A stretch of 64,000 bases of DNA from an uncultured Actinomycetes bacterium (GCA_963839575.1 CAWIVQ010000003.1:3506579-3570578), one strand, 5' to 3'; positions 1,221 to 49,382 are shown, numbered from the stretch's first letter. Translations and numbers: made by a program. The notes: generated from the sequence alone by a model not told the origin.

Positions 1221-2397
1221 TCAGTCGAGGCGGTTCGCCCGGGCGACACCTCCGAGCCAGGCCGCCGAGGGCTTCGGCGTGCGGACGAACGAGTCCCTCG
1301 TGACCGAGACGAGTCCGAACCGGGGTCCGTAGCCCAGCGCCCACTCGAAGTTGTCGAGCAGCGACCAGTAGAAGTACCCGCGTACGTCGATCCCGTCCGC
1401 CAGGCACCGCCCGACTCCCTCGAGCGCGGCGCGCACGTAGTCGATGCGGCGGGTGTCGTCGTCGTGACCCAACCCGTTCTCGGTCACATAGAGCGGCGTC
1501 CGAGCAGTCTCGGCCGCGAACCGGATCGCCACCTCGAGCGCGTCGGGCCAGTACTCGTAGCCCATCGAAGGAACGATCTCGACGCCCGCTTCGGGTCCGA
1601 GGATGCCCGTCGTGTCGATACGCGGTCCGCGAGTACGCCTGCACGCCGACGAAGTCGTCGCCACGTGCGGCTTCGAGGAACTGCGCCTCGTGCGAGTGCC
1701 GGGCCCGCTCCAGCGTCTGCTCGGCACCGGGCGGGCTCCACCAGTCGCCCATCGCCACGCAGAGCCCGAGCGGGAAATCGCCGCGCCCCGCCTTGATCAC
1801 GTCGTACGCGCTGCGGTGCGCCCGGATGAGGTTGTCGTTCACCGTGACGTAGGCGCCGATGTCGTGTTCGCGGCCCGGCGGGAACGCACCGACGACGTAA
1901 CCCATGAGCGAGAGGATGTTCGGCTCGTTGATCGTGCAGCCGATCGAGATCAGGTCGCCGAGGTGGGCGACGGTCCGCTCGCAGTAGCGGCTGAAGCGGT
2001 CGACGATCTCGGGTGCCTCCCAGCCACCCAGCGCCGCGACCCAACGCGGGTTCGAGAAGTGGTGGAACGTCACGACGGGCTGCACGCCCTGTGCGTGACA
2101 CTCGGCGAGGACGCGCCGGTAGTAGTCGAGCGCGGCGATCGAGAACTCCCCGTCCTCGGGTTCGATCCGTGACCACTCAATGGAGAACCGGTACGCACCG
2201 AAGCCGTGGTCGCGCACGAGCGCGATGTCGTCGCCGTAGAGGTGGAAGCTGTTGGTGCAGTCGCCGGAGGGCTCGACGCAGGGCGTTCCCGCCGCATGCT
2301 CGAAGTCCCACCAGTCGTTGTTCCAGTTGCCGCCTTCGATCTGATGCGCGGCCGCCGCCACGCCCCACACGAACCCGTCGGGGAAAGTCACGCTCAT
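1221..2397 (-). pseudogene. GH1 beta-glucosidase, one frame break near 1620
   Basis: N-terminal and middle part in the frame of ORF 1192..3333 (MSVTFPDGFVWGVAAAAHQIEGG..., TFHHFSNPRW, CTINEP). C-terminal part in the frame of ORF 1221..1727 (YVTENGLGHDD, YFYWSLLDNFEWALGY). The junction reads ...VGVQAYSRT / RIDTTGILGPEAG and needs a 1-nt shift around 1618-1626. Confidence 0.85.
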
Positions 2398-2424
2398 GGG
2401 GCCGGAGCGTAGACTGCGGGCCGC

Positions 2425-3234
2425 TTGACCATCCTCGACGACATCCTCGCGACCAAGCGCGACGAGGTCACGGTGCTGCGCTATCCGCAGACGCGCGACC
2501 TGCTCCGCAAGACCGCGCTCGACGCCCCGCCCACCCGTGACTTCGCCGGCGCCCTCCGCCGGGCCGACGGCCGGGTCGCGGTGATCGGCGAGTTGAAGCG
2601 CCGGTCGCCGTCGAAGGGCGACCTCGCGCCCGACCTCGATCCGGGCCCCACCGCGAAGGCATACGAAGCCGGTGGCGCCGTCGCGCTCTCGGTCCTCACC
2701 GACCAGCCGTATTTCGGAGGGATGGTCGCCGATCTCCAGGCCGCCCGCGACGCGACCACGCTGCCGTGTCTGCGCAAGGACTTCACGATCGACGAGGTGC
2801 AGGTCTACGAAGCGCGCGCGATCGGCGCCGACGCGATTCTTCTCATCGTCGCCGCGCTTCCCGACGACGCGCATCTCCGCGACCTGCACGCGCTCGCGTG
2901 CGACCTCGGCCTCGGCGTGCTCGTCGAGGCGCACGACGGCCACGAGGTCGAGCGAGCCCTCGCCGCGGGCGCGCACGTCGTCGGCGTCAACAACCGCGAC
3001 CTTGCGACCTTCGCCGAAGACCTCGGCGTCGCGACGAGCCTCTCGGCGCTCCTGGCCCCGGAGGTCATCGCGGTCGCGGAGTCGGCGATCCGCACTCCGG
3101 CCGACGCCCGGCGCGTCGCCGCGGCCGGCTTCGACGCGATTCTCGTCGGTGAGGCACTCGTACGTTCCGACGATCCCACCGCGCTCGTACGCGAGCTCGC
3201 GACGGCACCCGTGTCCCGAAGGAGTCAGATATGA
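2425..3234 (+). CDS. trpC: indole-3-glycerol-phosphate synthase
   Basis: 269-aa ORF with TTG start. [56 protein letters not shown]. First gene of the trp block. Confidence 0.9.
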
Positions 3235-4499: not shown

Positions 4500-4512
4500 C
4501 CGGGTTGTTCCG

Positions 4513-10478: not shown

Positions 10479-13183
10479 GTGTTCGAATACCCGGCCGAGT
10501 GGGAGAGCGACGTCGTCCTCGCCGACGGTGGCACCGCGACGGTGCGACCGGCCCGGCCCGACGACGAGCCGGGACTCTTGGCGCTCTACGAACGACTGAG
10601 CGACGAGTCGATCTATCTCCGGTTCTTCTCGCCGGTGCCGCGCCCGACCGCGGTGCAGCTCGAGCGCATCACGTCGATCGACTACGTCGACCACATGGTG
10701 CTCGTCGCGCTGCTCGGCTCCGACATCGTCGCGGTCGCCCGGTACGACCGGGTCGGACCCGACGAGGCGGAGGTCGCGTTCGCGGTTGCCGACGACCAGC
10801 AGCGCCGGGGTCTGGCCACCTTGCTGCTCGAGCACCTCGCGGCGATCGCGCGGGCGCACGGCATCAGTAAGTTCTCGGCCGACACGCTCCCGGGGAACGC
10901 GAAGATGCTGAACGTGTTCGCCGACGCGGGTTGGGAGGCCAGCCGCCGTTTCGACGAGGGGACGGTCCGCGTCGAGTTCGCGATCGCGCCGACGCCGACC
11001 TCGGTGGGTGTCGTCGCGGCGCGTGAGACGCATGCCGAGTCGGCGTCGATCGCGCGACTCCTCGCCCCGCGGTCGATCGCAGTCATCGGCGCCAGCCGCC
11101 AGCCCGGCAAGATCGGCCACGAGCTCTTCCGCAACCTTCTCGAGTACGGATTCGACGGGCCGGTGTACCCGGTACACCCGACCGCGACCTCGGTCGGCGG
11201 GGTGCGCGCCTACCCGCGCGTCGTCGACGTGCCCGACGCGGTCGACGTCGCGGTCGTGGTCGTACCGGCATCCGATGTCCCGGCCGTCGTCGACGAGTGC
11301 GCGGAGAAGGGCGTCCGGGGCCTGTTGGTGATCACGGCCGGCTTCGCCGAGACCGGGCCCGAGGGCAAGGCGGCCGAGCGCGAGCTCGTCGCGTCGGCCC
11401 GGCGCAACGGGATGCGCATCATCGGCCCGAACTGCTTCGGGGTGTTGAACACCGCGCCCGGAGTTCGTATGAACGCGACGTTCGCGCCGGCCCAACCCGT
11501 CGCGGGGAACGTGGCATTCCTGTCGCAGTCGGGCGGGCTCGGCATCGAGCTGATGAGCCGGGCCGCCGATCTCGGTATCGGGATCTCCCAGTTCGTGTCG
11601 GTCGGCAACAAAGCCGACGTCAGCGCGAACGACCTCCTGCAGTACTGGGCCGACGACGCGCAGACCGAGGTCATCCTCTTGTACCTCGAGTCGTTCGGTA
11701 ATCCCGGGAAGTTCGTGCGCCTCGCGCGCAACCTCGCGCGTTCGAAGCCGATCGTCGCGGTCAAGAGCGGGCGAACCGCGGCCGGGAGCCGTGCCGCGTC
11801 ATCGCACACGGCCGCGCTCGCGGCGCCCGACCTCGCCGTCGACGCGCTGTTCCGCCAGGCCGGGGTCATCCGCGTCGACACGCTCGACGAGCTGCTGTCG
11901 ACCGCGATGGTCCTGGCGCACCAGCCGCTGCCCGCCGGGCGGCGCGTCGCGATCGTCAGCAACGCCGGCGGTCCCGGAATCCTCGCGGCCGACGCGTGCG
12001 CCGGGGCACGCCTCGAGGTTCCCGAGCTCGACGGCGCGACGCAGGACGCACTGCGAGCCATCGTGCTGTCCGGTGCCTCGGTGCACAACCCCGTCGACCT
12101 CGTCGCGGGCGCGTCGGCCCGCCAATACGAGGACGTGCTGCGCGTCGTGATGGCCGACGCGTCGATCGACGCGGTCCTCGTCATCTTCGTCCCGCCGCTC
12201 GTCACTCGCGCCGAGGACGTTGCCCGGGCGATCGGGAGCGCGGCCGAGTCGGCCGGCGGCAAACCGATTCTCTCGTGCTTCCTCGGCCAGACCGGCGTGC
12301 CGAGCGAGCTGCGCGGCGACGAGAAGCGCCAGACGATCCCTTCGTTCGCGTTCCCGGAGTCGGCCGCGCACGCGCTGGGTCGGGTCGCGGACCTGGCCGA
12401 TTGGCGCAAGCGCCCACCGGGAGTCGTCCCGCGAGCTGACCGGCATCGATCTCGACGGCGCGCGTGCGCTCGTCGCGGGCGCCCTCGCGGCGCAGCCCGA
12501 AGGCGCGTGGCTGGACCCGGGTACGGCCGCGCGGCTCCTGTCGTGTTTCGGGATCCCGGTGGTCGCGACACGCGAGGTCACCGACGCCGCCGGGGCACGC
12601 GCCGCTGGCGCGCGAGGTCGGGTTCCCCGTCGCGCTGAAGGCCTCCGCTCCGGGGCTCGTGCACAAGAGCGACGTCGGCGGTGTCGCGCTCGACCTGCGT
12701 GACGAGGACAGTGTGGCGGACGCGTACACGACGATGGCAGGCGCGCTCGGAACCGCGATGACGGGCGCGGTCGTGCAGCCGATGGTCGCCGCCGGGGTCG
12801 AGGTGATTCTCGGTATCACGCACGACGTCACGTTCGGCCCGATCGTCCTGTTCGGCCTCGGAGGCGTCACGGCGGAGCTGCTCGCCGATCGCGCCCTGCG
12901 CCTGGTGCCCGTCACCGACGACGACGCGCACCAGCTGGTGCGGTCGCTGCGGGGCTCGCAGCTGTTCTTCGGCTACCGCGGCCGCCCCGCAGTCGACGTG
13001 GACGCGCTCGAAGACGTGATCCTGCGCGTCGGAGCGCTCGCCGACGAAATCGCCGAGATCGCCGAGATGGATCTCAATCCGGTCGTTGCGTCGGCGAACG
13101 GCGTGGTGGCGATCGACGTCAAGATCCGGATCACACCGGCGGTCGTCGGCGTGCCGAGTGATGTCCGCCGTATGCGCACGTAG
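10479..13183 (+). pseudogene. GNAT acetyltransferase fused to an NDP-forming acyl-CoA synthetase-like module (PatA-like domain order), two frame breaks
   Basis: N-terminal GNAT (VAVARYDRV...AFAVADDQQRRGLATLLLEHL). CoA-binding and ligase part (IAVIGASRQPGKIGHELFRNL, VITAGFAETG, IIGPNCFG, FLSQSGGLG, YLESFGNPGKF) in the frame of ORF 10479..12638. Next segment RELTGIDLDGARALVAGAL...GIPVVATREV lies in the frame of 12220..12702. The ATP-grasp end LAREVGFPVALKASAPGLVHKSDVGGV...MDLNPV lies in the frame of 12464..13183. Breaks near 12420 and 12600. Confidence 0.8.
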
Positions 13184-13274
13184 CGGGCGATATCGCCCTC
13201 GGCGTTCGTCGGACTCGCGTCGCGACCGTGCTGTCACGCGGTCGCGACGCGACGGTGACGCCCCTGCTTGCACG

Positions 13275-14464
13275 TTGTGCGAGTGTCCGACGCTCGCACA
13301 ACGCGCGTTCGCCCGGGTCGCACGGGCGTGGTCCATTCGGCGGTCGCCGGGGTTCGCGCGCGAGGAAGAAAGTCCTCTGCTCGCCTCGGCGCTCTCCAAC
13401 GGTTACCAACTCGTCGCCGCGATCGCATTCGTGTCCGTCGCGGGTACGGCGATCGCCGTCGCGCTCGTTCCGGATACGACCGCGCACCGGCTCGGATTCG
13501 CGGCCGAGCTCGCGGTTGTCGGCGTCGGCGTCGTGGTACTCGCGCTGGTACTCGACCGCCGTACCGCGAAAGTCGTCGCCCGTCCGTTCCGCGCGCTCGA
13601 AGAGACGCTCGCCACGATCGCCGCCGGCAATTACGACGTTCGCTCCGACCTGCCGCTCGCCGCGACAGAGATTCGGGCGATGGGCGCGCTGGTGAACGGC
13701 TTGGCCGACGAGGTCGTGAGAGCACGCGAAGCCGAGGCCGAAGCACTCGGGCGACTCCGCTCACTCGACGAAGCTCAGCACCGCTTTCTCTCGTACGTCG
13801 CGAGCGAACTTCGCAGCCCGCTGGTCAGCATGGTCGGCCAAGTCGAGTTCCTGCGCGCGACCCACGCCGACGCGCTGACCCCCGAGGGGCGCAATGTCAC
13901 CTCGGCAATTCAGTACGACGGCCGGACCATCCTCGCGCTGCTCGAGGACCTGCTGCCGGTCGTACCGGCCGAACCACGACGGCCACGCCTCGAACACGCG
14001 CTCATCGATCTCGCGGGTGTCCTGAAACGCGTCGAGCACGACGTCGGTCCGGCGGCGGAATGGCTGGCGCTGCAGCTCGAGTTCAGTCTCGAAGAGGGCG
14101 TCAGGTTGTTCGGCGACGAGCAACAGGTCGAGCGAGCACTCCTGAACCTGGTATCGAACGCCGTGCTGTCCTCCTCCCGGGAGGTCGCGTCACGGTGTCT
14201 GCTCGCTCGCAACGCGACTCGACCATCATCGAAGTGAGCGACTCCGGCTTCGGTACACCTCCGGACGAGCACGACGGGTTCGTCGCGATGTTCCGCCTGA
14301 ACGTGCCGCCGAAACGGGAAGCGACCGCATCCGGGCTCGGTCTCTATGTCGTGAAGGAGATCCTCGACGCCCACGGTGGCAGCTTCAGCATGATCTCCGA
14401 TCCGGGAGTCGAGACCGTGTTCACGCTGCGCTTTCCGAACACGCTCGGCGATCAGACGCCCTAG
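13275..14464 (+). pseudogene. membrane sensor histidine kinase (TM-HAMP-HisKA-HATPase), one frame break near 14170
   Basis: Frame of 13086..14237 carries the TM helices, a HAMP-like segment (FRALEETLATIAAGNYDVRSDL) and the H-box FLSYVASELRSPL up to LLNLVSNAV. The ATP-binding end PGGRVTVSA...IEVSDSGFG...ASGLGLYVVKEILDAHGGSF is in the frame of 13268..14464. Start uncertain (TTG at 13275 is a guess). Confidence 0.7.
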
Positions 14465-18442: not shown

Positions 18443-19990
18443 GTGACCGATCACGTGCTCACGATCGACCTCGGCACCTCGGGGCCGAAGGTCGCGCTCT
18501 TCACCTTCGACGGAGCATTCGTCGACGGCGACTTCACGCCGGTCGCGTTGAACGTGCTGCCCGATGGCGGCGCCGAGCAGTCGCCGAGCGCGTGGTGGGA
18601 CGGGATCGCGAGCGCCGCACACCGACTCCTGGAACGAGCGACCGTGCCGGTCGACGACATCGTCGCCGTGGCGGTGACGTCGCAATGGTCGGGTACGGTC
18701 CCGATCGATCGCCACGGCGCGGTGTTGCACGACGCGATCATCTGGATGGACGCGCGTGGCGCGGCGGAGACGAGGCGCGTCGTCGGCGGCGCGTTGCGGC
18801 TGCAGGGCTACGAGCCGCGCAAGCTCCGCACCTGGATCAGCCACAGCGGCGGTGCGCCCGCGCTCTCGGGCAAGGATTCGATCTCGCACATCCTCTGGCT
18901 GCAGCGCGAGCGCCCCGACATCGCGCGCGGCGACGTGGAAGTACCTCGAGCCGAAGGACTGGCTCAACTACCAGCTCACGGGCCGGTGCGCGGCCACGTT
19001 CGACTCCATCGTGTTGCACTGGGTCACCGACAACCGGGATCCCGCCCGCGTCGACTACGACCCCGAGCTCCTCCGCATCGCCGGGCTCGACCGGGCTCAG
19101 CTTCCCGACCTGGTTCCGGCCACGTCGATCGTGGGATCGCTGACCGAGCAGGCCGCGTCGGCGCTCGGGGTGCGGGCCGGCATCGCGGTCGTGGGCGGTA
19201 CCCCCGACCTGCAGTCGGCCGCGATCGGTTCGGGTGCCGTTCGCGATTTCGAAGGCCACCTCTACGTGGGAACGTCGTCGTGGCTGACGTGCCACGTACC
19301 GTTCAAGAAGACCGACCTCTTCCACGGCATCGCGTCGCTGCCGTCGCCGTTGCCCGGCAAGTACTACGTGGCCGACGAGCAGGAGGTCGCGGGCGGGTGT
19401 CTGGAATGGCTGCGGGAGCACGCGCTGGAGACGGGTGACGACTTCCGCACGCTCGACGCCGTTGCGGGCGCGTCGGCCCCGGGGAGCAACGGCGTGATCT
19501 TCACGCCCTGGTTGAACGGCGAGCGCACTCCGGTCGACGATCACACCTTGCGAGCCGGCTGGCACAACCTCTCACTGGCGACGACGCGAAGCGACCTGGT
19601 CCGGTCGGTGCTCGAAGGCGTCGCGTACAACAGCCGTTGGCTCCTGGCCACGGTGGAGAAGTTCGTGGGCCGGCCGTTTCCCTGGTTGCACTTCATCGGC
19701 GGTGGTGCGCAATCGGAGCTCTGGTGCCGGATCATGGCCGACGTGCTCGAGCGCGAGATCCGCCAGGTCGAACATCCCATCCGGGCCAACGCACGCGGCG
19801 CCGCGCTGCTGGCGGGGATCGCGCTCGGAGCGGATCACGGTCGCCGACCTTGCCCGCAACGTCCGGGTCGTCGCGACCTACACGCCCGAGCGCGCGAACC
19901 GCGCGACGTACGAAGATCGCTATGCGGAATTCCCGCGTGTTGCACAAGCAGACGAGCCGGAGAACCAAACGCCATGTCCACGGCAGCTGA
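18443..19990 (+). pseudogene. FGGY-family carbohydrate kinase (xylulokinase-like), two or three frame breaks
   Basis: N-terminus LTIDLGTSGPKVALF...WMDARG in the frame of 18443..19438. Middle part WKYLEPKDWLNYQLTG...GTPDLQSAAIGSGA...FIGGGAQSELWCRIMADVL...ANARGAALLAG in the frame of 18756..20240. ITVADLARNVRVVATYTPE...YEDRYAEF in the frame of 19702..20484. Breaks near 18930 and 19830. The end is ambiguous: a further shift near 19930 would give ...RVLHKQTSRRTKRHVHGS with a stop at 19990. Confidence 0.75.
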
Positions 19991-20073
19991 GCGCGGGAGC
20001 CCGCGCTGCGTCCGCGACGACGCCTTCCCGATGCGCGGCGTGGGGCCTGGCCGAACCCGGCGAGCTCGATCGC

Positions 20074-22846: not shown

Positions 22847-24159
22847 CTAGGCGAGGTTGAATTCCGGGCTGAGCATCAGCAGCGTCAACAGGTTGATGAA
22901 CGTCCAGTTGACCCACGCGTGGGTATCGGTGCGCTGCTTCGTCAACCACGCTTCGAGTGCCGACCGCGTGTGCGCGGACGGGGCGTCGATGCCGAAGAAG
23001 TCGAAGCCGTACTGGATCGCGTCGTGGACGCTCATCGTGGTAATCGCGCTCGAGTCGGTTCTGCACGTCGTTGTTCTTCCAGACCAGGCCGCGGCCCCAG
23101 TTCGCGCGCGCCCAGAGCCGCGACGTCGTGAGCCAGTACTCGTTGGGCCGCCAACCCGACACGTTCGGCGGCTCGAAGAGTTGCTGGCCCATGTCGTCCA
23201 TGTACCACTGCGGGTTTGCGTCCTCCGCGGTGATCCCGGCCACGCGCATGCACGCCGCGACCCATTCCGCCGGGGTCCGTACGAGGCCGTTCATCGCCTT
23301 CGGGGAGACGAAGTTCGGGTGCATGAAGATCGCCCGCACGAGATCGTGGATCGAGAGGTCGTTGCCCAAGAAGGAATTGGCGAGGCTCGTCACGACATCG
23401 GGTTCGGGGTCGGGGTAGGCGAAGAACGACCACATCTTGGCGGCGATGAACTTCGCGGCGATCGTCTTGTGGGTCGTGTCGGACCCGAGGATGAAGTCGA
23501 TGATGTCGGGACCGTCCCAGTTCTGGGTGACGCCCATGAAGGTCTTCAGCCCGGTGTCGTGGCGGTCGGGATAGAAGTGGTACTGCTCCCGATCGCCGTC
23601 GAGCGTGTTGTGGCCGGTCCATGCCCGGGCCGACGACACCACGTCGGCCTGGCTGTACTGGTCGACGCCGAGCGTGAAGAGTTCCATGAGCTCGCGCGGC
23701 GAAATTCTCGTTCGGGCTGCCCTTGACGTTGGGATCGTTGTCGAGCCAGATGAGCATCGCGGGTTGCAGCGACATCGAGTGCACGAGATCGCGGAAGTTC
23801 GCGGTGGCGTTGGCGCGGAACAAGGAGTTCTGCTGGTACATGAGGAGCATGTCGCCGACCTTGTAGTTCGCGGTCGCGAAGTGCCCGTGCCAGAACAGCG
23901 TGAGCTTCTCCTGCAGTGGCGAGGTGGAGGTCGCCATACGGTCGAGCCACCACTGCTGGAGCATGTACTCCTTTTGCCAGTCGCCCGTGCCCGAATCGGT
24001 GAGGTATGCGGGCTGCGTGTCGACCGGCGCACTCGAGAAGTCGAGGAGCTGGTCGACGGTCGTATCCCACGGTTGGGCGGCGAGGGTGTTGACCTGCGTG
24101 ATGGTTCCGCCGAAGCCGGCGCGACGAAGTAGATGTGCGACGTTCGCGGGAAGCGGCAC
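22847..24159 (-). pseudogene. DUF1800-family protein, two frame breaks
   Basis: N-terminus VAHLLRRAGFGG...FWHGHFAT...NDPNVKGSPNENFA in the frame of 23032..24159. RELMELFTLGV...GPDIIDFIL...PPNVSGW in the frame of 22833..24032. The end ...INLLTLLMLSPEFNLA is in the frame of 22847..23035. Breaks near 23697 and about 23040-23080. Lies 10 nt upstream of the DUF1501 gene, the usual pairing. Confidence 0.75.
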
Positions 24160-25110: not shown

Positions 25111-26724
25111 GGATCCGGACGGTACTCGTCGGGCTCGGTCGTGTGGACGGGGCTGATCTCGTCGAGCGTGCGGGCCGCGGATTCCGGCAAGAGGGGAATG
25201 ACGAGGAGCGCGACGAGGAACGACCCCACACCGGTGAGCGCAACCGACTTGCCGATGCCGCCGAGATGGTGGGACAGGTCGCCCGCGAGGAGCAGTCCCG
25301 TTGCCGAGCCGATCACCCCGACGACGTAGAGCATCGCGTTCGAGGTGGAGCGCACTTCGGTCGGGAAGAGCTCGGCGTCGAGTGTCCCCAACGCGATCCC
25401 GCCCGCGCCGGCCATGAAGATCGACACGGCCGACATCAGCCACAGGGACACACCGCCGGTGAGGAAGAAGATCATCTGGGTGCCGGTGGCGACGGCGAGC
25501 GCGATGCCCGCGACCGGGCGGCGCCCGCGGATCTCGGCGAGGCGCCCGCCGACGAGCACGCCGACGAGTCCGGGAAGCGGCGGTGGTCACGGTGCGGAAG
25601 GCCGCGATATCGGTGTTCGTGAACCCGCGGATGTCGGTCAGGTACTTGTTCATGAACGACGATGACGGTCCGCTGAAGAAGCTCGTGAGGAACGCGACGA
25701 CCGCGAGCAGCAGGAACCGGTGGCCGTTCTGCCGGAACACGTCCCGGGCCCGGCCGCGCACCACGTCGGCACGCGCGGCGAGCGCGGTGTAACGGGCGGT
25801 CTCACCGAGCGAGCGCGCGACCGCCGGCGCGAGGAGGATCGTCGCGCCGCCGAGCGCGAACGGGATGCGCCAACCCCACGACGCGATGTCGCCCAGGGGC
25901 AGGGTCACGACGGAGAAGGAGAACCCGAACCCGCCCGCGAGCGCGAGCATCGACGCGGCGTAGGCGCGCGCGCCCTCGGGGGCTTCCTCGACGACCGCGA
26001 GGAACGCCACGGTGGCGGTGGTGCCGACGAGCCCACGTTGCAGTATCTGCGCGGTCGTGAACGCGGCGAGGTTCGGCGCGGCGGCCGACGCGGCGCAGAC
26101 GATCGCGGAGCCCACGACGCCGATGAGGATCGACCGCCGCCGACCGCGGCGATCGGCGATCGCGATCGCGAACAGGGCGAACAACGCGCCGAGGCGGGTG
26201 AGCGCGAACGCGACGCCGATCGTCGCGTCGGAGGCGCCGAAGCTGCGGCTGATCGGGCTCGACAGCTGACCGAACAGCGCCGCCGCGAAGGAGACGATCG
26301 CCGTCGCCGCGGCCGCGGTCGCGATGAAGGCGGACTGCTCCGGGGTGAACGCGACCGGCGGGAGACCGACGACGGTCCGCGGCCGGACCGGACCGGGCCG
26401 GCCGTCGAGCGCGGTCCGGATCGTCTCGAGCGCGAAGCCACGTGACCTCCGGTGCGCGATCGCGACGAGGGGTCGGAAGAACCACCCGAAGAAGGGGATC
26501 TCGATATCGCCCACCGACGTGACCGTCAGATCGGTTCCGGTGCCGCCCGCCGCCTCGGCCAGTACGAGGGTCAGTCCGATCGCGGGCTGCTGGTCGAGCG
26601 GCGCGGCGACCGCGAGGGCATCGGCCCGCAGAGGTGTGGCGCCGAGTCTTCCGACCGCCGCCTCGCGCACCGCGTCGACCGGGGCCGCGAGCCGAACGAG
26701 CGAAGACCGCGGCACGCGCGGCAT
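25107..26724 (-). pseudogene. MFS transporter with an extra ~125-aa N-terminal domain, one frame break near 25580
   Basis: Frame of 24256..26724 gives the N-terminal soluble-looking domain, then TM helices and the MFS loop motif IADRRGRRRS, up to ...DIAAFRTVTT. The last TM helices LPGLVGVLVGGRLAEIRGRRP...LLPESAART are in the frame of 25107..25559. Confidence 0.7.
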
Positions 26725-27423: not shown

Positions 27424-29531
<2,108 letters not shown>

Positions 29532-30195: not shown

Positions 30196-31911
30196 TGACC
30201 ATGGCCGCCTGGGCCGAGCTCGGGGCGTTGATCGCGATGTTGGCGGTCAGCACGCCGTTGCTCGGCAACTACATGGCAAAGGTGTACGGCGCGAAGCGTG
30301 CGCCGGGCGACCGCGTCTTCCTCCCGGTCGAGCGCGCGATCTATCGCCTCACCGGCGTCGACCCCGACAGCGAGCAGCGCTGGCAGACCTACGCGCTCTC
30401 GTTGCTCGCGTTCAGCTTCGCCTCGGTGCTCATCCTTTACGCCCAACTGCGGTTGCAGGGCCATCTGCCCTTCAACCCCGACGCGCAAAAGGGCGTGAAG
30501 CCGACCCTGTCGTTCAACACGGCCGTCAGCTTCCTCACGAATACGAACTGGCAGAACTATTCGGGCGAGACGACGATGTCGCACCTCACCCAGATGGCCG
30601 GCCTCGCGGTGCACAACTTCGTGTCGGCCGCGGCGGGCGCGGCGGTCGCAGTTGCTCTGATCCGGGGTCTCGTGCGCCGGCGTACGCACACGGTCGGCAA
30701 CTTCTGGGTCGATCTCGTGCGCACCACGACCCGCATCCTCTTGCCGCTCTCGTTCGTGTTCGCGCTGGTGCTCGTGAGCCAGGGCGTCGTGCAGAACTTC
30801 CACGCCGCCAAGACCGTGACGACCGTTGCCGGTCAGACAGCAGACACTTCCGGGCGGGCCGATCGCCAGCCAGGAAGCGATCAAGGAGATCGGTCAGAAC
30901 GGCGGCGGCCCCTACAACGCGAACTCGTCGCACCCGTTCGAGAACCCGAACGCCATCACGAACCTTCTCGAGATCTGGATGTTGCTCGCCATCCCGTTCG
31001 CGTTCCCGTGGATGTTCGGGAAGATGGCGGGTTCGACGAAGCAGGGCCTGGCCGTGCTCAGCGCGATGCTCGCGCTCTGGCTCACCATCTCGATCGTCGC
31101 GATGGTGTTCGAGGCGAACGGCAACTCCAAGCTCGACAAGCTGGGAGTGACGCAGAGCGCCACGTCGACCCAGGTCGGCGGCAACATGGAAGGAAAGGAA
31201 ACCCGGTTCGGGCCCGCGACCTCGGGCCTGTTCGCGTCGTCGACCACCGGGACGTCGACCGGTTCGGTCGACTCGATGCACGACAGCTTCACGCCCATCG
31301 GCGGCGCCGCACCGCTGGTCAACATCATGCTGGGCGAAGTCGATCCCGGCGGAACCGGTTCGGGCCTCTACGGCATGTTGCTGTTCGCACTGTTGTCGGT
31401 GTTCATCGCGGGCCTCATGGTCGGCCGAACTCCCGAGTACCTCGGGAAGAAGATCCAGGGCGCCGAGATGAAGCTCGTGGTGCTCTACATCTTGTTCGTC
31501 CCGCTCGTGATCCTCGCATTCACCGCGGCGTCACTCGTGATGAAGCATCCGCTGGGCTCGCTCGAGAACTCCGGGCCCCACGGGCTGACCGAGATGACGT
31601 ACACGTTCACGTCGCAGGCCAACAACAACGGCTCGGCGTTCGCCGGTCTTTCGGGCAACACCGACTGGTTCAACGTGACGGGTGGTCTGGCGATGCTCAT
31701 CGGCCGGTTCATGTTGATGATCCCGGTTCTCGCGATCGCCGGGTCGCTCGGCCGCAAGCAGCCCACACCCGCGTCGGCGGGCACCTTCCCCACCGATACC
31801 GGGTTGTTCGCAGCGTTGTTGACGGGTGTCGTCGTGATCGTCGTCGGCCTCACCTACTTCCCGGTCGTCGCGCTCGGCCCCGTGGTCGAGCACCTCGTGG
31901 GCAAGTTCTAG
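30195..31911 (+). pseudogene. kdpA: K+-transporting ATPase subunit A, one frame break near 30840
   Basis: [16 protein letters not shown]...[19 protein letters not shown]...[16 protein letters not shown] in the frame of 29943..31928. It continues [36 protein letters not shown]... to the stop at 31911 in the frame of 30826..31911. Confidence 0.85.
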
Positions 31912-31924: not shown

Positions 31925-34029
31925 ATGACTATGACCTCCACAGAGTCCGGCGAACCGGCCGGCCCGCCCGCCGTGAAGCCGGCCAAGGTACGGACGCGGC
32001 CGGCCGGGACGCGCTCCCTGTTCGATCCCGCGATCATGAAGCGCGCGACATGGGACTCCGTCGTCAAGCTCGACCCGCGCCAGATGATGCGTAACCCGGT
32101 GATGTTCATCGTCGAGGTGGGCAGCGTGCTCACGACGGTCCTCTTCTTTCAGAAGCTGCCGTCGGCGAAGTCGTCCGACAGCGTGTTCACCGGCCTCGTC
32201 TCCGCGTGGTTGTGGTTCACGGTGTTGTTCGCGAACTTCGCCGAGGCGGTCGCCGAAGGGCGGGGTAAGGCCCAGGCCGACACGCTGCGCAAGACCAGGT
32301 CGGAAACGGTCGCGCGCATCCGCCAGCCCGACGGTTCGATCGCCGAGAAGTCGTCGAACGACCTCCAGGTCGGCGACGAGTGCGTCGTGGTCGCGGGCGA
32401 GCTGATCCCCGGCGACGGCGAGATCATCGAGGGCATCGCATCCGTCGACGAGTCGGCCATCACCGGCGAGTCCGCCCCCGTGATCCGCGAGTCGGGTGGC
32501 GACCGCTCCGCGGTCACCGGCGGCACGCGTGTCCTTTCGGATCAGATCGTCGTGCGCATCACGTCGAAGCCGGGCGAGACGTTCCTCGACCGGATGATCG
32601 CGCTCGTCGAGGGCGCCTCCCGCCAGAAGACGCCGAACGAGATCGCGCTCAACATCCTGCTCGCCGGTCTGACGATCATCTTCTTGCTCGCCGTCGTGAC
32701 GCTGCAGCCGTTCGCGATCTACTCCAAGGCCAGCCAGTCGCTGACGGTGCTGGTCGCGCTGCTCGTATGCCTGATCCCGACGACGATCGGCGCCCTGCTG
32801 TCGGCCATCGGGATCGCGGGCATGGACCGGCTCGTCCAGCGCAACGTGCTCGCGATGAGCGGGCGCGCCGTCGAGGCGGCGGGCGACTGCTCCACACTCC
32901 TGCTCGACAAGACGGGCACGATCACCTACGGCAACCGTCAGGCCGCGCAGTTCCTGCCGGTGCCCGGGGTCGACGAGCACACGCTGGCCGATGCCGCGAT
33001 GCTCTCGAGCCTCGCGGACGAGACGCCGGAAGGGCGCTCGATCGTGACGTTCGCGCAGGAGCACCACGGACTCGTGCCGAGAGAGATCCCGCACGCCGAG
33101 CTCGTCGCGTTCACCGCTCAAACCCGCATGAGCGGGGTCGACTTCGACGGCAACTCGATCCGCAAGGGTGCGGCCGACTCGGTTCGGCGGTGGGTCGTCG
33201 AACAAGGAGGTGTCGCGCCCGACGAGCTCGAGACGATCGTCGACGGTATCGCCACCCAGGGCGGAACGCCGCTCGTCGTGGCGAACGGAACGCGTGTCCT
33301 CGGGGTGATCTACCTCAAAGACGTCGTGAAACAGGGCATGCGGGAACGCTTCGATCAGATGCGGGCCATGGGCATCCGCACGGTGATGATCACCGGCGAC
33401 AACCCGCGCACTGCGGCGGCGATCGCGGCCGAGGCCGGTGTCGACGACTTCTTGGCCGAGGCGACCCCCGAAGACAAGATGGCGTTGATCAAGCGCGAGC
33501 AGCTCGGCGGCTCGATGGTGGCGATGACGGGCGACGGGACCAATGACGCGCCACGCTCGCCGTTGCCGACGTCGGCGTGGCCATGAACACGGGCACGCAA
33601 GCCGCCAAAGAGGCCGGCAACATGGTCGACCTCGATTCCAATCCGACGAAGCTCATCGAGATCGTCGAAATCGGCAAGCAGTTGCTGATCACACGCGGCT
33701 CGCTCACGACGTTCTCGATCGCGAACGACATCGCGAAGTACTTCGCGATCATCCCCGCGATGTTCGCCGGGGTGTTCCCGCAACTCGACTCGCTGAACAT
33801 CATGCGTCTCGACAACCCGCACTCGGCGATCCTCTCGGCGGTCATCTTCAACGCGCTCGTGATCGTCGCACTCATCCCGCTCGCGCTGCGCGGCGTGAAA
33901 TTCCGGGCGATGGGTGCTGCCGCGATCCTGCGCCGCAACCTCTTGATCTACGGGCTCGGCGGCATCATCGCCCCGTTCATCGGTATCAAGCTCATCGACA
34001 TCGTCGTCACCGCGCTGGGAGTGCACTGA
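31925..34029 (+). pseudogene. kdpB: K+-transporting P-type ATPase subunit B, 1-nt deletion near 33553
   Basis: ORF 31925..33586 has [12 protein letters not shown] (phosphorylation site) and [10 protein letters not shown], then goes out of frame. The expected [29 protein letters not shown] continues in ORF 33577..34029. gcgccacgctcgcc lacks one base relative to gcgcca-g-cgctcgcc. Confidence 0.9.
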
Positions 34030-34643: not shown

Positions 34644-37156
34644 GTGGCTCGGGGTGATCTGCGGGTCTATCTCGGCGCTGCGCCGGGCGTCGGCAAGACG
34701 TTCGCGATGCTGAACGAGGGCCGGCGGCGGCACGACCGCGGCGCCGACGTGGTGGTCGGCTACGTGGAGACGCACGGCCGCGCCCGCACGATCGAACAGG
34801 TCGGCGACCTCGAGATCGTCCCGCGCAAGCTGGTGACGTATCGAGGTGTCGAGTTCGAGGAGATGGACCTCGACGCGGTGTTGGCCCGGCGCCCGGAGAT
34901 CGCGCTGGTCGACGAGCTCGCGCACACGAACATCCCGGGATCGCGCCACGAGAAGCGTTGGCAAGACGTCGAGGAGCTGCTCGACGCGGGCATCGCGGTC
35001 GTGTCGACCGTCAACGTGCAGCACCTCGAGTCGGTGAACGACGTCGTCGAACGCATCACCGGCGTCGAGCAACGCGAGACCCTGCCCGACGAGGTCGTTC
35101 GCCGCGCCAACCAGGTCGAGCTCGTCGACAGCACTCCGGAAGCGCTCCGGCGGCGTATGGCGCACGGCAACATCTACAAGCCGGAGAAGGTCGATGCCGC
35201 ACTGGCGAACTACTTCCGTCCCGGCAACCTCGCCGCGCTGCGCGAGCTCGCGCTGCTCTGGGTCGCCGACAAGGTTGACGAAAGCCTCCAGCGCTATATG
35301 GAGGACCACGGCATCACGGCGGCCTGGGAGACGCGCGAACGCGTCGTCGTGGCCCTCACCGGGGCCCCCGGGGGCGAACATCTCGTGCGCCGGGCCTCGC
35401 GTATCGCGACCCGGGCCAAGGGCGATCTCCTCGGCGTGCACGTGCGGGCGGGGGAGGGACTTTCGGGTCCCGAGCCGGGCGCCATCGAACGCCACCGCGT
35501 GCTGCTCGAGGATCTCGGGGGGTCGTACCACGAGGTCGTGGGCGCCGACCCGTCAATGGCACTGGTCGACTTCTCTAGGGCGGAACGGGCGACCCAACTC
35601 GTGCTGGGCTCGAGCCGGCGGTCGCGCTGGAGTCATCTCGTCCGGGGTTCGGTGATCAATCGGGTCGTTCGTGCTGCAGGCGATATCGACGTGCACATCA
35701 TCTCGACGAAGTTCGAGGGCGAAGCACCCGTCCGGACATGGAATCCCCGCGCCTTCTCACTCGGAGTTTCCGCGCAACGCCAACTCGCGGCGGCACTGTT
35801 CGCCGCGTTCTCATTACCGCTGCTCACGTTCGTATTGACGCAGGAACGCGATCGTGTGTCGCTCGGCAGCGACCTTCTCCTGTTCTTGGCGCTCGTCGTC
35901 ATCATCGCCACCATCGGGGGAGCGTGGGTCGCCGGAGCGGCTGCGGTCGCGGCGTTCCTCCTGGTCAACTGGTTCCTGACGCCGCCGATCCACACGTTCA
36001 CGATCGGTGACGGCCAGAACGTCTTGGCCCTCGTGGTCTTCCTCGTGGTGGCCGCGGTCGTCAGCGGGCTGGTGTCCGCCGCCGCGCGGCGCGCTCTCGA
36101 GGCGGCCCGCTCCCGCAGCGAGGCGACCTCACTCGTGCGCCTGGCCGGCGCGCTGCTGGCCGAGGACGATCCGCTCCCGAGCATCATGGCGCAGCTCCTG
36201 AGCACCTTCTCGCTGCGGTCGGTGGCGGTGTTGCGGCCCGCCGGGCCGAACGCGTGGATCGTCGAGGCGCACGCGGGCGAGGCCGTGCTGGAACGGCCCG
36301 ACGACGCCACCGCCACCTCTTCGTTGCCCGACGACGCGGTGTTCGCTTATGTCGGTCCGGACCTCACCGGCGACGACCGCCGTGTGCTCAACGCGTTCGT
36401 CGCCCAGCTCGCAGTGGCGCTCGCGGGGCGCGAGCTGCGCGCAGAGGCTTCGGCCGCCGTGGCCGTAGCCGAGGCCGACGCGCTCCGCACCGCGCTGCTC
36501 CCGCGGTGTCGCACGATCTGCGCACCCCGCTCGCTTCCATCAAGGCGTCGTCGTCGACCTTGCTCGCCGACGACCTGCACCTCGACGACGACACGGTGCA
36601 TCAGTTGCACCAGACGATCGACGAAGAGGTCGATCGGCTCAACGAGATCGTGAGCAATCTCCTGGCCATGAGCCGGCTCCAGGTCGGGGCGCTGCAGCTC
36701 GTGTACTCCGAGGTCGGTATCGACGAGATCGTGGGCCGCGCGCTGGTGAGCCTCGGCGATCGCGCCGGGGGAGTCGTGGTCGACGTCCCGGATTCGTTGC
36801 CGAGGGTCCGCGTCGATCCGGCGCTCGCGGAGCGGGCGCTCGCCAATGTGCTCGACAACGCGCTCGCATGGTCGCCGCCGGAGCAGGCGGTACGGGTCGA
36901 GGCCGCGGTGGTGGGCGATCGCGTCATGCTGCGCGTCATCGATCGCGGTCCGGGCATTCCGCCGCTCGACCGCGACCGGGTGTTCCAACCCTTCCAGCGG
37001 CTCGGTGACACGCGCACGCGCGTCGGCGCCGGTGTCGGACTCGGGCTCGCCGTCGCCCGCGGTTTCACCGAGGCGATCGGCGGCGAGCTCCACCTCGAGG
37101 ACACGCCCGGCGGTGGAACGACCATGACCTTCGGATTCCGGGTGTCGTCGTCATGA
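34644..37156 (+). pseudogene. kdpD: sensor kinase KdpD, one frame break near 36501
   Basis: The KdpD N-terminal domain (LRVYLGAAPGVGKTFAMLNEG, LVDELAHTN), Usp-like region, four TM helices (DUF4118-type) and a GAF-like part are in ORF 34644..36653. The H-box AVSHDLRTPLASI and the HATPase domain (DRGPGIP, GVGLGLAV) are in ORF 36254..37156. Confidence 0.88.
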
Positions 37157-37836: not shown

Positions 37837-38616
37837 ACTCAGCTCAGGAACTCCTGCGGCGCCGTCCGCCCGATCCCGGCGACGGGCGGGTCTCGTGGGG
37901 AATGGGGGCCGGCGCGCTCGGGGTGCTCGTCATCGCGGGCGCCCTCGTGCCGTTCCGTGACCACCTGCCCAACGCCGACATGGCCCTCGCGCTCGTCCTG
38001 CCGGTGTTGCTCGCCGCGATCGTGGGCGGGCGCATCGCCGGCGCCGCCGCGGCAGTGGTCTCGGCGCTCACCTTCGACTTCGTGTTCACCCAGCCCTACC
38101 TGTCGTTGCGGATCGCGAGCAAGGATGACGTCGCCACGTTCGTGGTGTTCTTCATCGTCGCCATGGTCGCGGCCGAGGTCGGCATCCGGGCCCGCCAAGG
38201 CGGGGCGGCCGCGCGTGAGCTGCGTTCCGAGCTCGACCGGTTGTTACGCGTGGGCGAGCTCTCCACGCGGTGCCGACGCCGACGATGTCGTGCTCTCGGC
38301 GCGGGCCGAGCTGATCGGGTTGTTCGGACTCGACGAGTGCGTCTTCCAGGCCGAGCGCTCCGGGCCCGAACTGCCGCGGCTCGGAAACCGGGGCGCGTTG
38401 GAAGGCGCGCGCCTCGTCGCCTGGGGTGAGTTCCTGCTGCCGACCGGGGGCGTGGAGGTACCGGTGATGGGGCGCGGTCGCGAGCTCGGGCGCCTCGTGC
38501 TCTACGCGGCGGAAGCGACGCGTGCGTCGCTCGAGCAGCGGCTGGTCGCGGTGGCGATCGCCGACGAGGTGGGCCTGACGCTGGCGTCGAGCGCGCCGGG
38601 CGACAAGATGGCGTAA
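37833..38616 (+). pseudogene. KdpD-like membrane sensor stub (DUF4118-type TM bundle plus GAF-like domain, no kinase core), one frame break near 38265
   Basis: The ATG overlaps the kdpE TGA. TM region LALVLPVLLAAIVGG...LTFDFVFTQPYLSLRI...VVFFIVAMVAAEV resembles the KdpD membrane domain. The C-terminal part DADDVVLSARAELIGLFGLDECVF...GRLVLYA continues in the frame of 37957..38616. Confidence 0.6.
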
Positions 38617-45936: not shown

Positions 45937-45990
45937 CCGCCGTGGCCTGATCGCCCTGGCCTGATCGCCGTGGCCGGGTACGGCGATCAG
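45929..45990. repeat. 3.4 copies of a 14-nt tandem repeat (TGGCCTGAYCGCCS) ending in a perfect 11-bp hairpin
   Basis: Units at 45929, 45943, 45957 and a partial one at 45971; the first contains the fabZ stop. ctgatcgccgt (45961-71) pairs with acggcgatcag (45980-90) across an 8-nt loop, between convergent ORFs. Confidence 0.7.
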
Positions 45991-46292: not shown

Positions 46293-46314
46293 GCGCTTTG
46301 TGGGAAACGACCGC

Positions 46315-46397
46315 GCCCGAGTGGTGGAATGGCAGACACGACGGACTCAAAATCCGTTGCCCGCAAGGGCGTGAGGGTTCAAGTCCCTCCTCGGGTA
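46315..46397 (+). tRNA. tRNA-Leu (anticodon CAA)
   Basis: GCCCGAG acceptor pairing with CTCGGGT. Anticodon stem-loop ACGGA-CTCAAAA-TCCGT. Long variable arm TGCCCGCAAGGGCGT. T-arm GAGGG-TTCAAGT-CCCTC. Discriminator A. CCA not encoded exactly. Confidence 0.85.
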
Positions 46398-46408
46398 CCC
46401 ACTGACGA

Positions 46409-49382
46409 TCAGGAGACACCTCGCCGACTCGCCGGCGGTCTCGCCAACGCGTGTATCTGCTCACGCACGAATTCGATGATCTCGCCGTCGCTCAGCGTCG
46501 TCCCCCGTCGAACCGCGGAGGCGAAGGCGCTCGCTCCGAGTTGGCGGCGGAGGTCGTCGACGAGAGCGCTGAGGCGCTGGGCGTCGGCCGCCTCGAACGG
46601 TAGGGCGTACGCGGCCCCGGCGGCGGTAAGCGCGCCGTGGAGTGTCGCGGCACCGAGGTGTGCCCGGAGCTGCACGAGGATGCCGAAGACGTGGCGTAGC
46701 GACAGCCACTGGTTGGCCCAGTCGCCGCCGCGGTACCAGAGCTCGACGACGTCCGCGTAGCGGTGCAGGGCCTCGCGCGGCTCGCCCTCGCGGCGCGGAG
46801 CCACAACACCTCGGTGAGGGCGAAGGCCTCGATCCAACGGTTACCGGCATCGCGGGCGAGGTCCACCGCGCGACGCAGGTGCTCGGTTGCCTCCGTCGGA
46901 TTCGTCGACTCGAGCGCCAGTCCGAGCGCGTAGCTCGCCTGCGCGTGGGCGGTGGGTGAATCGGAGGCCATGGCGGCGGCGCGCGCTTCGCCGGCGAGCT
47001 GCGCACCTTTCACGTACTCGCCGACGCTCGTATGCGCGACCGATCGCATGTAGAGCGCATGGGTGAGCCGTGCGGGCGATCCGTCCCCGCGGACTCGATC
47101 ATCCGGTCCATCCATCCGGTGCCTCCCACCGTGTCGCCGCGGTAGAAGCGCGCGTTGGCCAGCGCCCGTTCCGCCAGGCCGGAGCAGTCGACGTTCAGTC
47201 GCTCGGCCTCGGCGACCGCGAGTTCGCCGAGCTCGATCGCTGCTTCGAGGTCGCCGCGCACGAACCGGCCGTAGGCCGTGACCGCGACCAGCACCGCAAA
47301 GCGCGGGTGCGCCGCGGCGCCGGGGAGTGCGCTGACGGCTTCGGCCCAGTTGGTGATCTCCGCGTGCATGCACCGGAACCCGTACTCCCGTAGCCCGACC
47401 ACCAGCCGCAGCCCGAGATCGACGTCAGCGTGTTCGAGCGACCAGATGTGCGCGGATCGGAGGTTGTCGTAGTCACGGTCGAGCGCGGCGACCGCCGCGG
47501 CTTCGTCGGCGCCGGACAAGGCCTGGGCACTTCGTTCCACGAGGTCGAGGTACCAGTGCGCATGTCGGTTCCGCACCGCCTCGCGCTCGTCTCGGCCTAT
47601 TCGATCTCGGCCGAATTCGCGGAGTGTCTCCAAGAGGCGGTAACGGGGGAGGTGCTCGTCGACCAGTTGCACCATGGACTTGTCGACGAGGTTCGCGAGG
47701 AGTGTCGAGACTCTGGCCGGGCTGAGATCCTCACCCGCGCACACTCCTTCGGCGGCATCGAGCCCGAAGGTGCCGGCGAACACGCCGAGGCGCCCGAAGA
47801 GTCGTTGCTCATCGGGATCCAGCAGGTCGTGCGACCAAGCGACGAGATCGTGCAGGGTCCGGTGCCGGGCGATCATCGACGTCTGGGAACCGGCGAGGAT
47901 CTCGAACTCCCCGTCGAGCCGCTCGGCGAGTGCGGCCGGGCTCATCGCTCGGATGCGAGCCGCGGCGAGCTCGATCGCGAGCGGCAGTCCGTCGAGACGT
48001 CGAACGATCTCCGCGATCACACTGACGTCGTCGGGCTCGGGGGCGTATCCCGGCCGCGCGGCCCGCGCTCGCTCGAAGAACAGCTGCATCGCCGGCGCGT
48101 CGGAGGCCAACGTGGCGCTGGAACCTTCCGACGCGACGTCGAGCGGGCCGACGCGCCACACCTGCTCGCTCGGAAGCCCCAACACCTCCCGACTGGTCGC
48201 GAGCACCGTGACCTCGGAGCACAAGCTCAGTAGCCGGTCGGCCAGTGGGGCGACGGCAGCCCGGAGGTGCTCGCAATTATCGAGCACGAGCAAGGCTTTT
48301 CGGGCTCGCAGGTACTCGACGAGCGTCTCCTCGACGGAGAGGTGCTGGCGCTGTTGTACATCGAGCACCGTTGCGATGGCGGCGACGGTCGAAGCGGGAT
48401 CATGGAGCGGCGCCAGCTCCGCGACGAAGACCTCACCTCCGAACTCGTCCCACAGGTCGTGCGCGAGCCGCATGGCGAGCCGGGTCTTGCCGACACCCCC
48501 CGGCCCGGTCAGTGTCAACAGGCGAACGTGGTGCAGCCGGTCGATGAGCCGGTCGAGCTCCTCGTCCCGACCGATCAGCTGCGTGGTATCGACGGGGAGG
48601 TGTCGTGGCTTCGAAGGCCGAGATGCCGCGTTCGTCTGCAGCAAGGTCTGGTCGTCGTTGAGTACACGAGCCTCGAGCTCCCGGAGCGCCGACGAGGGTT
48701 CGAGCCCGAGCTCATCGCGCAGGAGTCTTCGGTAGGCGTCTGCTTGGCGCAACGCTTCCGCCGCCCGTCCGCTGCGGTACAAGGCGACGATCAGTTGATG
48801 CCGGAGCCGCTCACGCAGCGGGCTCTCGGCGACGAGCGCCTCGAGCTGGCCGACGCACGCGCCGTGTTCCCCGAGCGCGAGGCGCGCCTCTAACAGGTCC
48901 TCTCGCGCGTTCGTGCGCAACTCGTTCAGTCGCATCTCTTCGAGGCGGGCCCAGTCGAACTCGGCGAATTCCGCGAACGCGGACCCTCGCCAACACGACA
49001 GTGCGGCACCGAGGTGCTCGATCGCCACCGCCGGGTCCGGCTCACCGTTGGCAAGCGAACACAAGCGTTCGAAACGTCCGGCGTCGAGCGTGTCGCGGTC
49101 GACCTCGAGCACATAGCCCGGTGGCCGGGCAACGATGTCGGCCTCGGGCCGGAGCAACTTGCGCAACCGCGAGATATTGCTTTGCAGCACGCCGGGAGGA
49201 TCGACCGGGGGGTTGTCGCTCCACAGCTCCTCGCAGAGCCGGTCGGTCGACACGATCTCGCCGTGGCGCGCGGCCAGGAGGGCGAGCACCAGACGCGGCT
49301 TCGGCCCACCGATCGGTACCGGTTGTCCGCCGCGAACCAGCGCGATGCCGCCGAGCACCCGGATCTCGAGACCGCCGTCCAC
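46409..49382 (-). pseudogene. large SARP/AfsR-type regulator (winged-helix DNA-binding, BTAD, NB-ARC ATPase, TPR-like C-terminus), two frame breaks
   Basis: ORF 47010..49382: LEIRVLGGIALVRGGQPVPIGGPKPRLVLALLA, BTAD region (DAGRFERL...LIVALYRSGRAAEALRQ), Walker A LTGPGGVGKTRLA, LVLDNCEH, GLPLAIELAA. The C-terminus continues DGSPARLTHALYMRSVAH...DAGNRWIEAFALTEV in the frame of 46492..47373, then REGEPREALHRYADVVELWYRGGDW... in the frame of 46409..46837. Breaks near 47083 (in a CCCC run) and about 46795. Confidence 0.8.

Follow-up and report, generated by a model that had tools for sequence, protein, structure and literature searches.

Analysis of a 64,000-nt stretch of DNA from an uncultured Actinomycetes bacterium (GCA_963839575.1 CAWIVQ010000003.1:3506579-3570578), referred to below as the window, showed the presence of 21 private frame-disrupting insertions and deletions (indels) in genes of various functions, including the kdp operon and genes for a beta-glucosidase, an acyl-CoA synthetase, an FGGY kinase and a SARP regulator. 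Nearly all of these breaks are attributed, with a probability of roughly 0.86, to consensus indel errors in a metagenome-assembled genome (MAG) obtained from long reads, and not to mutations of the organism. An earlier note on this DNA had proposed two explanations for the breaks, namely, assembly or consensus error and genuine, very recent gene decay, and leaned toward decay. The former is supported by the privacy of the lesions, by artefacts of the same class in the sister assemblies and by selection that has not been relaxed; the latter is contradicted by a ratio of non-synonymous to synonymous substitution rates (dN/dS, omega) that is not raised, by a lesion spectrum unlike that of pseudogenes, and by the same privacy of the breaks.

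The window is represented by actinobacterial DNA with 69% G+C. The coding frame was resolved by a codon-usage score trained on the window's own long open reading frames (ORFs); at all positions listed in the earlier note, the frame jumps abruptly within a continuous coding signal. Single Pfam domains run on across the frame switches: GH1, FGGY_N/FGGY_C and PIG-L are all split, the KdpA profile is covered from 3 to 201 and then from 214 to 548, and that of DUF1800 from 6 to 159 and then from 160 to 371. The HisKA domain of KdpD is interrupted at the H-box, HATPase_c of the orphan histidine kinase begins at profile position 38, and ATP-grasp_5 at position 41. Protein alignment with orthologues from short-read MAGs and from the sister genome, a check suggested in the earlier note, matched the broken genes in two to three frames with contiguous protein coordinates and placed the indels. 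Accordingly, each listed site is borne out by the codon-score switch, Pfam continuity and orthologue alignment, and the presence of frame breaks in the deposited sequence is confirmed.

Exact positions of the lesions and their privacy were obtained by aligning syntenic loci of relatives with the window chunk by chunk. The sister genome is represented by two loci, L040 and L082, with about 95% nucleotide identity to the window, colinear with it over positions 511-39038 with the exception of one kinase island. The private lesions comprise 14 of +1 nt, six of -1 nt and one of -2 nt. Two of the 21, at about 14177 in the gene of an orphan histidine kinase and at about 61305 in the tail of rpsA, were placed without close orthologues, hence by inference; all 19 polarisable lesions are missing from the sister MAG and the outgroups in multi-genome alignments. 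The break at 20036 is additional to the earlier list, and a site near 19930, given there as uncertain, corresponds to the private insertion at 19932. The statement that every lesion is tiny holds for the 21 private breaks, of 1-2 nt each; the break placed at 23040-23080 is a 4-nt insertion common to the window and the sister. The lesions are as follows (window coordinates, strand, gene, lesion).

1624..1624, minus strand, GH1 beta-glucosidase: private +1 (extra G), absent from the sister locus L082 and from L083
12432..12432, plus strand, GNAT/acyl-CoA synthetase (ADP-forming): private +1 (C), alignment of 4 sequences
12606..12606, plus strand, GNAT/acyl-CoA synthetase, second break: private +1 (T), ATP-grasp_5 from profile position 41 in a third frame
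14175..14178, plus strand, orphan histidine kinase (island 13192-14456): probable -1, C missing from TCCTCCTCCC-GGGAGG, polarity deduced
18929..18929, plus strand, FGGY kinase: private +1 (G)
19826..19826, plus strand, FGGY kinase: private +1 (C), aligned with L082 and L038
19932..19932, plus strand, FGGY kinase, 3' end: private +1 (C; CC to CCC), aligned with L082, L038 and L003
20036..20036, plus strand, PIG-L deacetylase, 5' part: private +1 (C), aligned with L082, L038 and L003
20299..20299, plus strand, PIG-L deacetylase: private +1 (G), aligned with L082, L038 and L003
21505..21506, minus strand, DUF1501 protein: private -1 (C), orthologue from L037 matching at 5-447 in frame -2 and at 449-669 in frame -1
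23060..23063, minus strand, DUF1800 protein: 4-nt insertion, also in the sister locus L082, absent from outgroups L038, L037, L010 and L001
23697..23697, minus strand, DUF1800 protein: private +1 (C), alignment of 6 sequences, at the Pfam switch from 6-159 to 160-371
25577..25577, minus strand, MFS transporter: private +1 (G), 7 sequences, orthologue from L003 matching at 15-408 in frame -2 and at 421-567 in frame -3
29361..29363, plus strand, glnK (PII), last five codons: private +1 (GG to GGG), aligned with L040 and L002
30137..30137, plus strand, kdpF, codon ~12: private +1 (C), missing in 6 relatives and in an alignment of 14 sequences
30839..30839, plus strand, kdpA: private +1 (A), 16 sequences, at the Pfam switch from 3-201 to 214-548
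33550..33551, plus strand, kdpB: private -1 (C), 16 sequences, KdpB from L037 matching at 11-544 in frame 2 and at 538-702 in frame 1
36501..36502, plus strand, kdpD, H-box codons: private -1 (G in CTCC-CGCGG), base present in 9 of 9 relatives
38263..38264, plus strand, small 'KdpD-like' gene with DUF4118: private -2 (CG), 11 sequences
46792..46793, minus strand, SARP/BTAD-NB-ARC regulator: private -1, aligned with L077 and L078
47085..47086, minus strand, SARP regulator: private -1
61303..61306, plus strand, rpsA, acidic C-terminal tail: probable +1 (extra C in ACG[C]GCGCCC)

Individual genes show the same pattern. The sister GH1 protein matches in frame -2 over residues 1-258 and in frame -3 thereafter. 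A second GH1 break, suggested by a Pfam gap (profile 238-331), was rejected as an alignment-edge effect, the sister protein giving one break. For the GNAT/acyl-CoA synthetase, the 900-aa sister protein P0268 matches with residues 1-651, 652-709 and 705-900 in three frames, and the match to the sister PIG-L protein passes from frame 1 (residues 3-89) to frame 2 (residues 90-253). In the orphan kinase, both HisKA and HATPase_c are split by the frame change; its distant homologues P0389, P0391, P0393 and P0396 match in frame 3 as far as 14165 and in frame 2 from 14180 onward. HisKA in the second fragment of KdpD begins at profile position 9. An alignment of 23 sequences puts the glnK insertion at 29365.

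Full-length orthologues of the SARP regulator, P0002, P0004 and P0012, match the window in three frames, and the deposited gene call P0001 is a fragment of 790 aa compared with about 985 aa in orthologues. The homologues of this gene sit in unrelated neighbourhoods and are useful only for placing its two breaks and for comparison with L077, another long-read contig, in which the SARP gene is also split, at a different site. The possible break in the low-complexity tail of rpsA, mentioned in the earlier note, is matched by the probable insertion at about 61305: the ORF has 533 aa against 477-496 in relatives, its tail becomes arginine-rich, and the next frame gives an acidic tail with a stop at about 61387.

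The sister genome provides the most direct comparison. Every gene broken in the window and carried by the sister is intact there, with full-length calls for GH1 (391 aa), the acyl-CoA synthetase (900 aa), the FGGY kinase (544 aa), PIG-L (253 aa), DUF1501 (722 aa) and DUF1800 (441 aa) proteins. The sister in turn has 48 private indels of 1-2 nt, none of them at the break sites of the window. Among genes intact in the window, trpB is split in the sister into 302 and 114 aa, trpA is cut to 130 aa, icd is split into 166 and 252 aa, and amt has two breaks; further sister breaks, at places where the window is intact, were found in kdpA (four) and kdpB (about 15). Single-base insertions are patchy in the sister, with four in trpA, four in icd and about 15 in kdpB (window-equivalent parts of L082 4202-10277 and L040 28230-33954), while a 9.6-kb stretch spanning the acyl-CoA synthetase and rml genes is free of breaks. 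The breaks in icd, trpA, trpB and amt of the sister are artefacts, because a free-living organism cannot lose these genes and yet keep the rest pristine. These artefacts and the breaks of the window are alike in size, context and privacy.

Similar private indels are present in other relatives. In loci belonging to long-read MAGs of the Microflora Danica (MFD) set, the frequency of private indels of a length not divisible by three is 3.8 per kb for L070, 2.7 for L068, 2.0 for L040, 1.5 for L036, 0.7 for L082, 0.4 for L004 and 0.17 for L038. The rate of private breaks over all 64 kb of the window is 0.33 per kb, and related MFD MAGs range from 0.14 to 3.8. In the five long-read loci with the highest rates, single-base insertions make up more than 90% of such indels. 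Short-read MAGs such as L084, L003 and L014 have few private indels, and those of L084, which was examined in detail, are mostly of several nucleotides and intergenic. Another short-read MAG, L002 from palsa, an Illumina assembly, has a private 52-nt deletion in kdpD (window ~36416-36467), producing two overlapping ORFs; a kdpD frame common to L002 and the window was considered and rejected, since this deletion is its own and unrelated to the break in the window.

The origin of the contig agrees with such errors. The gene calls of the window, truncated fragments included, all map to one contig of 3,712,325 bp, with NCBI and ENA as its only sources. The nearest relatives are uncultured soil Acidimicrobiia/Actinomycetes MAGs; where these have megabase contigs and share the NCBI/ENA signature, they belong to 'MFD' bins, whose contigs are named in the style of Flye. 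The long-read MAGs of Microflora Danica were assembled from Nanopore reads only, using Flye in the --meta --nano-hq mode followed by one round of Medaka (PMC12313526); the authors inspected their catalogue for Nanopore-associated errors and reported low coding density in some MAGs of lower coverage (PMC12313526). Most likely, the contig of the window is likewise Nanopore-only and was not polished with accurate short reads, judging by relatives with the same source signature. No second assembly of the window strain was found, and the broken fragments form singleton or near-singleton protein clusters; a scan of JGI metagenome contigs for the exact pattern of the kdpD break, with both alleles allowed, gave no match.

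Selection on the broken genes was assessed from single-codon changes on the window branch, polarised by an outgroup (L083 or L038) and counted per in-frame segment. The broken genes contain 216 synonymous and 32 non-synonymous changes (omega 0.052), and the intact genes 186 and 32 (omega 0.058); on the sister branch, omega is 0.064 for the broken set and 0.052 for the intact set. Relaxed purifying selection in broken genes was therefore not found on the window branch, and in measured constraint these genes equal the intact ones. The synonymous to non-synonymous ratio is 34:1 in kdpB and 32:1 in kdpD, and kdpA, kdpB and kdpD together have 100 synonymous against nine non-synonymous changes, beside five private frameshifts in the kdp operon. 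The neutral ratio of indels to substitutions in bacterial pseudogenes is roughly 1:5 to 1:20. If the kdp operon were decaying, tens of extra non-synonymous changes would be expected by the time four further indels had accumulated, and these are not present; for 20 indels, the same ratio implies more than 100 extra non-synonymous changes, whereas about 32 were counted in total. By a rough estimate, the time left for real frameshifts to arise would be at most about the final 2% of the branch. Coding frameshifts are represented by one on the ancestral branch of the window and the sister, against 21 and 48 on the two short terminal branches, and this terminal excess is the signature of assembly-specific noise.

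The spectrum of the private lesions is narrow, with 14 insertions and seven deletions. In-frame stops, insertion sequence (IS) elements and deletions longer than 2 nt were not found in the window, and every fragment is open up to the next break. Several genes are broken repeatedly, in particular the FGGY/PIG-L pair (five breaks in 1.4 kb), the acyl-CoA synthetase, the SARP regulator and the kdp genes, with no accompanying substitutions. At 12 of the 18 scored sites, the base differs from either neighbour, i.e., the site is not a homopolymer, and none of the window's 77 runs of at least 5 nt is affected. Homopolymer-type sites are 29363 (GG to GGG), 19932 (CC to CCC), ~14177 (CCCC to CCC), 21505 and 33550 (both CCC to CC). 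Genuine one-nucleotide indels arise spontaneously mainly in homopolymer runs, and in genuine bacterial pseudogenes deletions prevail and nonsense mutations make up a share of the lesions. Sites outside homopolymers had been taken in the earlier note as a sign of real mutation; this does not hold, since artefact insertions in the related long-read assemblies are mostly of the same kind (67, 21, 8 and 1 for run lengths of 1, 2, 3 and 4, i.e., 67 of 97 outside homopolymers). A shared error motif or a methylation-like context is not evident at the break sites beyond general CG-richness.

Most of the housekeeping genes of the window are intact. ORFs of orthologue length or full Pfam coverage were found for trp, icd, rml, amt, polA and coaE, as well as for the genes of type II fatty acid synthesis, fabD, fabH, fabG, acpP, fabF, accD and fabI; the 3.3-kb gene of a secreted protein is one unbroken ORF, and uvrB is open to the window end, where it runs off. 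The claim that housekeeping blocks are untouched is thus correct for these genes, uvrB being open so far, and incorrect for glnK and rpsA, which are broken. The accompanying division into about 23 kb of broken genes and about 37 kb of others is circular, since the 23 kb were defined as the genes that bear breaks. Along the window, the breaks show no significant clumping (index of dispersion 1.1-1.5, P = 0.09-0.32, 20 breaks without rpsA), and the largest break-free stretch is the window tail of 16.9 kb (P = 0.045, same set). In the sister, the private indels gather in marked clusters (index of dispersion 2.9-3.7, P <= 0.001); error spread evenly along the sequence is thus not an appropriate null hypothesis for assemblies of this type. 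For this reason, the argument that uniform error should have struck the long intact blocks fails: error in these assemblies is not uniform, as the clumping in the sister and its clean 9.6 kb show.

The proposed mechanism is as follows. At sites of poor local read support, the consensus caller would have added or dropped single bases; such errors would occur in patches, and whichever genes lie there would be broken. The density of errors would follow local read support, which may be lower or more mixed in regions of the metagenome that vary between strains, low or heterogeneous local coverage being the presumed cause of the patchiness. A number of the broken genes lie in or near variable regions, namely, the histidine kinase island 13192-14456, the SARP gene in a non-syntenic island and the GH1 gene, absent from L084. 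Most likely, the GH1, acyl-CoA synthetase, FGGY, PIG-L, DUF1501, MFS, kdpFABCD, SARP and other genes are intact and functional in the living cell.

Several observations weigh against the attribution to consensus error. Genes labelled as housekeeping make up 38% of the window and contain only two of the 21 breaks (binomial P = 0.004; P = 0.02 in a circular-shift test, which keeps the spacing of the breaks), the labels having been assigned post hoc, in accordance with the earlier list, in a window selected for this very appearance. Both of these breaks, in glnK and rpsA, are located at extreme 3' ends, where a frameshift is tolerable, and within their genes the breaks lie, on average, at a relative position of 0.66, i.e., toward the 3' end (z = 2.5). 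The depletion, the terminal position and the 3' skew are not predicted by purely random error and fit selection acting on real mutations. The ratio of insertions to deletions in the window is about 2:1, compared with more than 90% insertions in the worst relatives, and the platform and coverage of this contig are presumed. A dependence of errors on read support would be the most economical way to reconcile the depletion and the skew with consensus error.

The same observations would favour very recent genuine pseudogenisation, in which accessory, transport and regulatory genes are lost under relaxed selection and the frameshifts have become fixed. In addition to the nominal depletion in housekeeping genes (2/21, P = 0.004-0.02), the position of the glnK and rpsA breaks in dispensable C-terminal tails and the 3' skew, five breaks are found in one conditionally dispensable operon, kdp. 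This explanation is nevertheless very improbable. The dN/dS of broken genes on the window branch (0.052) is no higher than that of intact ones (0.058), and the deficit of non-synonymous changes is large. Nonsense mutations, IS insertions and deletions longer than 2 nt are lacking, the excess of insertions is opposite to the deletional bias of real bacterial pseudogenes, and the majority of sites are not homopolymers. Decay would have struck about 22% of the window's genes, several repeatedly, and left no other sign. The lesions are not inherited in common, with the exception of the 4-nt insertion in the DUF1800 gene, and the sister has lesions of the same kind in icd, trpA, trpB and amt. Little credence can be given to the claim that a substantial share of the breaks is real, which would mean a burst of single-base frameshifts in free-living soil Acidimicrobiia within the last ~2% of the terminal branch. 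Were it true, selection would have kept the breaks away from indispensable genes and toward 3' ends, and a mutation process prone to indels outside homopolymers would be implied.

Error, decay and a mixed origin are not mutually exclusive. A mixture, with mostly consensus errors, possibly a minority of real strain-level variants, and a distribution shaped by the biology of the sampled population, is rather unlikely. It would accommodate the absence of the histidine kinase island from the sister and L084, the non-syntenic SARP island and the absence of GH1 from L084, and the depletion and 3' skew do call for some non-random factor; moreover, the 4-nt insertion in the DUF1800 gene, present also in the sister, is most likely inherited. 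On the other hand, kdp, the acyl-CoA synthetase, DUF1501/DUF1800 and MFS genes are kept in all relatives examined and are constrained like core genes, and errors of the sister show no avoidance of housekeeping genes (12 of 48, compared with 31% expected). Programmed or tolerated frameshifting, in which the genes would still be expressed by ribosomal or transcriptional slippage, is hardly conceivable: nothing specific speaks for it, the coding signal merely continuing in the new frame, while the 21 sites lie in unrelated genes with no common slippery motif, the orthologues and the ~95% identical sister are single-frame at every private site, and no break is conserved. Consensus error thus remains the preferred explanation for nearly all of the private breaks.

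The 4-nt insertion at 23060-23063 differs from the private lesions. In the scan of 511-39038, it was the only coding indel of a length not divisible by three common to the window and the sister, and its inheritance as a real change of frame is therefore probable. The orthologue from L037 goes from frame -3 to frame -1 at this site, and the last ~67 codons of the DUF1800 gene are moved to another frame. In the C-terminus read in the old frame, three synonymous changes and one non-synonymous change were found, numbers too small to interpret.

Some further features of the window are related to the broken genes. The region 13192-14456 is an island of 1.27 kb with an orphan HAMP-HisKA-HATPase kinase and no adjacent response regulator; it is missing in the sister and L084, which have about 90-100 nt instead, and its best homologue in a set of 1.8 billion representative proteins reaches no more than 46% identity. 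The DUF1501-family gene contains, in its C-terminal part (20996-21466), 126-nt (42-aa) tandem repeats in 3.3-3.7 copies. They are related to an array of 1.9 copies (55836-56071) in the gene of the 3.3-kb secreted protein; accordingly, a repeat module is common to both proteins. On the minus strand at 24256-26724, the shifted frame past the MFS break at 25577 is stop-free into the frame of the SMP-30/gluconolactonase gene located downstream, giving an artificial fused ORF of 822 aa. At the 3' end of rpsA (61303-61565), the frame change exchanges the acidic tail for an arginine-rich read-through, and the ORF thereby exceeds those of relatives by about 40-55 aa. The breaks thus extend to an essential gene.

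Other candidate breaks were rejected. The indel at 26632 is one of L040 and that at 49651 one of L077, neither being a break of the window. At the fabD/fabH junction (44124-44390) and at the N-terminus of accD, the Pfam domains are complete. With a moderate coding score (89 codons) and without matches in Pfam, the fabD-fabH spacer of 257 nt (44124-44390, minus strand) may represent either a short ORF that has escaped annotation or an echo of coding on the other strand.

The results call for caution, since unpolished long-read MAGs can mimic incipient decay, with dozens of seemingly young pseudogenes of transport and regulation. Pseudogene counts, coding density and inference of pathway loss, in particular for Kdp potassium uptake, beta-glucosidase and acetyl-CoA synthetase, would be misled by such genomes. 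Two tests that distinguish artefact from decay without reads can be used routinely, namely, the privacy of indels relative to a sister assembly and the branch-specific dN/dS of 'broken' genes. Should the breaks be real after all, the window would capture, as is rarely possible, the onset of genome reduction in an actinobacterium living freely in soil; the evidence is contrary to this.

Among known systems, classical homopolymer errors of older Nanopore and 454 sequencing resemble the window in a few sites (29363, 19932, ~14177, 21505 and 33550) and differ from it in that 12 of 18 sites are outside homopolymers and 0 of 77 runs of at least 5 nt are affected. Reductive evolution, as in Mycobacterium leprae and recently host-restricted pathogens and symbionts, is similar in the many broken genes beside an intact core and in the prominence of transport and regulatory genes. 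Unlike these genomes, the window shows no relaxed dN/dS, nonsense mutations, IS expansion or larger deletions, its lesions are biased to insertions, its breaks are not present in the 95% identical relative, and the sister has the same lesions in essential metabolic genes. Compared with indel errors of Nanopore-only MAGs (MFD, PMC12313526), the excess of insertions is lower (~2:1 against more than 10:1 in the worst relatives), breaks are nominally scarce in genes labelled as housekeeping, and the platform is deduced. The two have in common single-base indels that split ORFs and are private to one assembly, a rate (0.33 per kb) that lies within 0.14-3.8, mostly non-homopolymer sites, and a coding sequence that is otherwise pristine.

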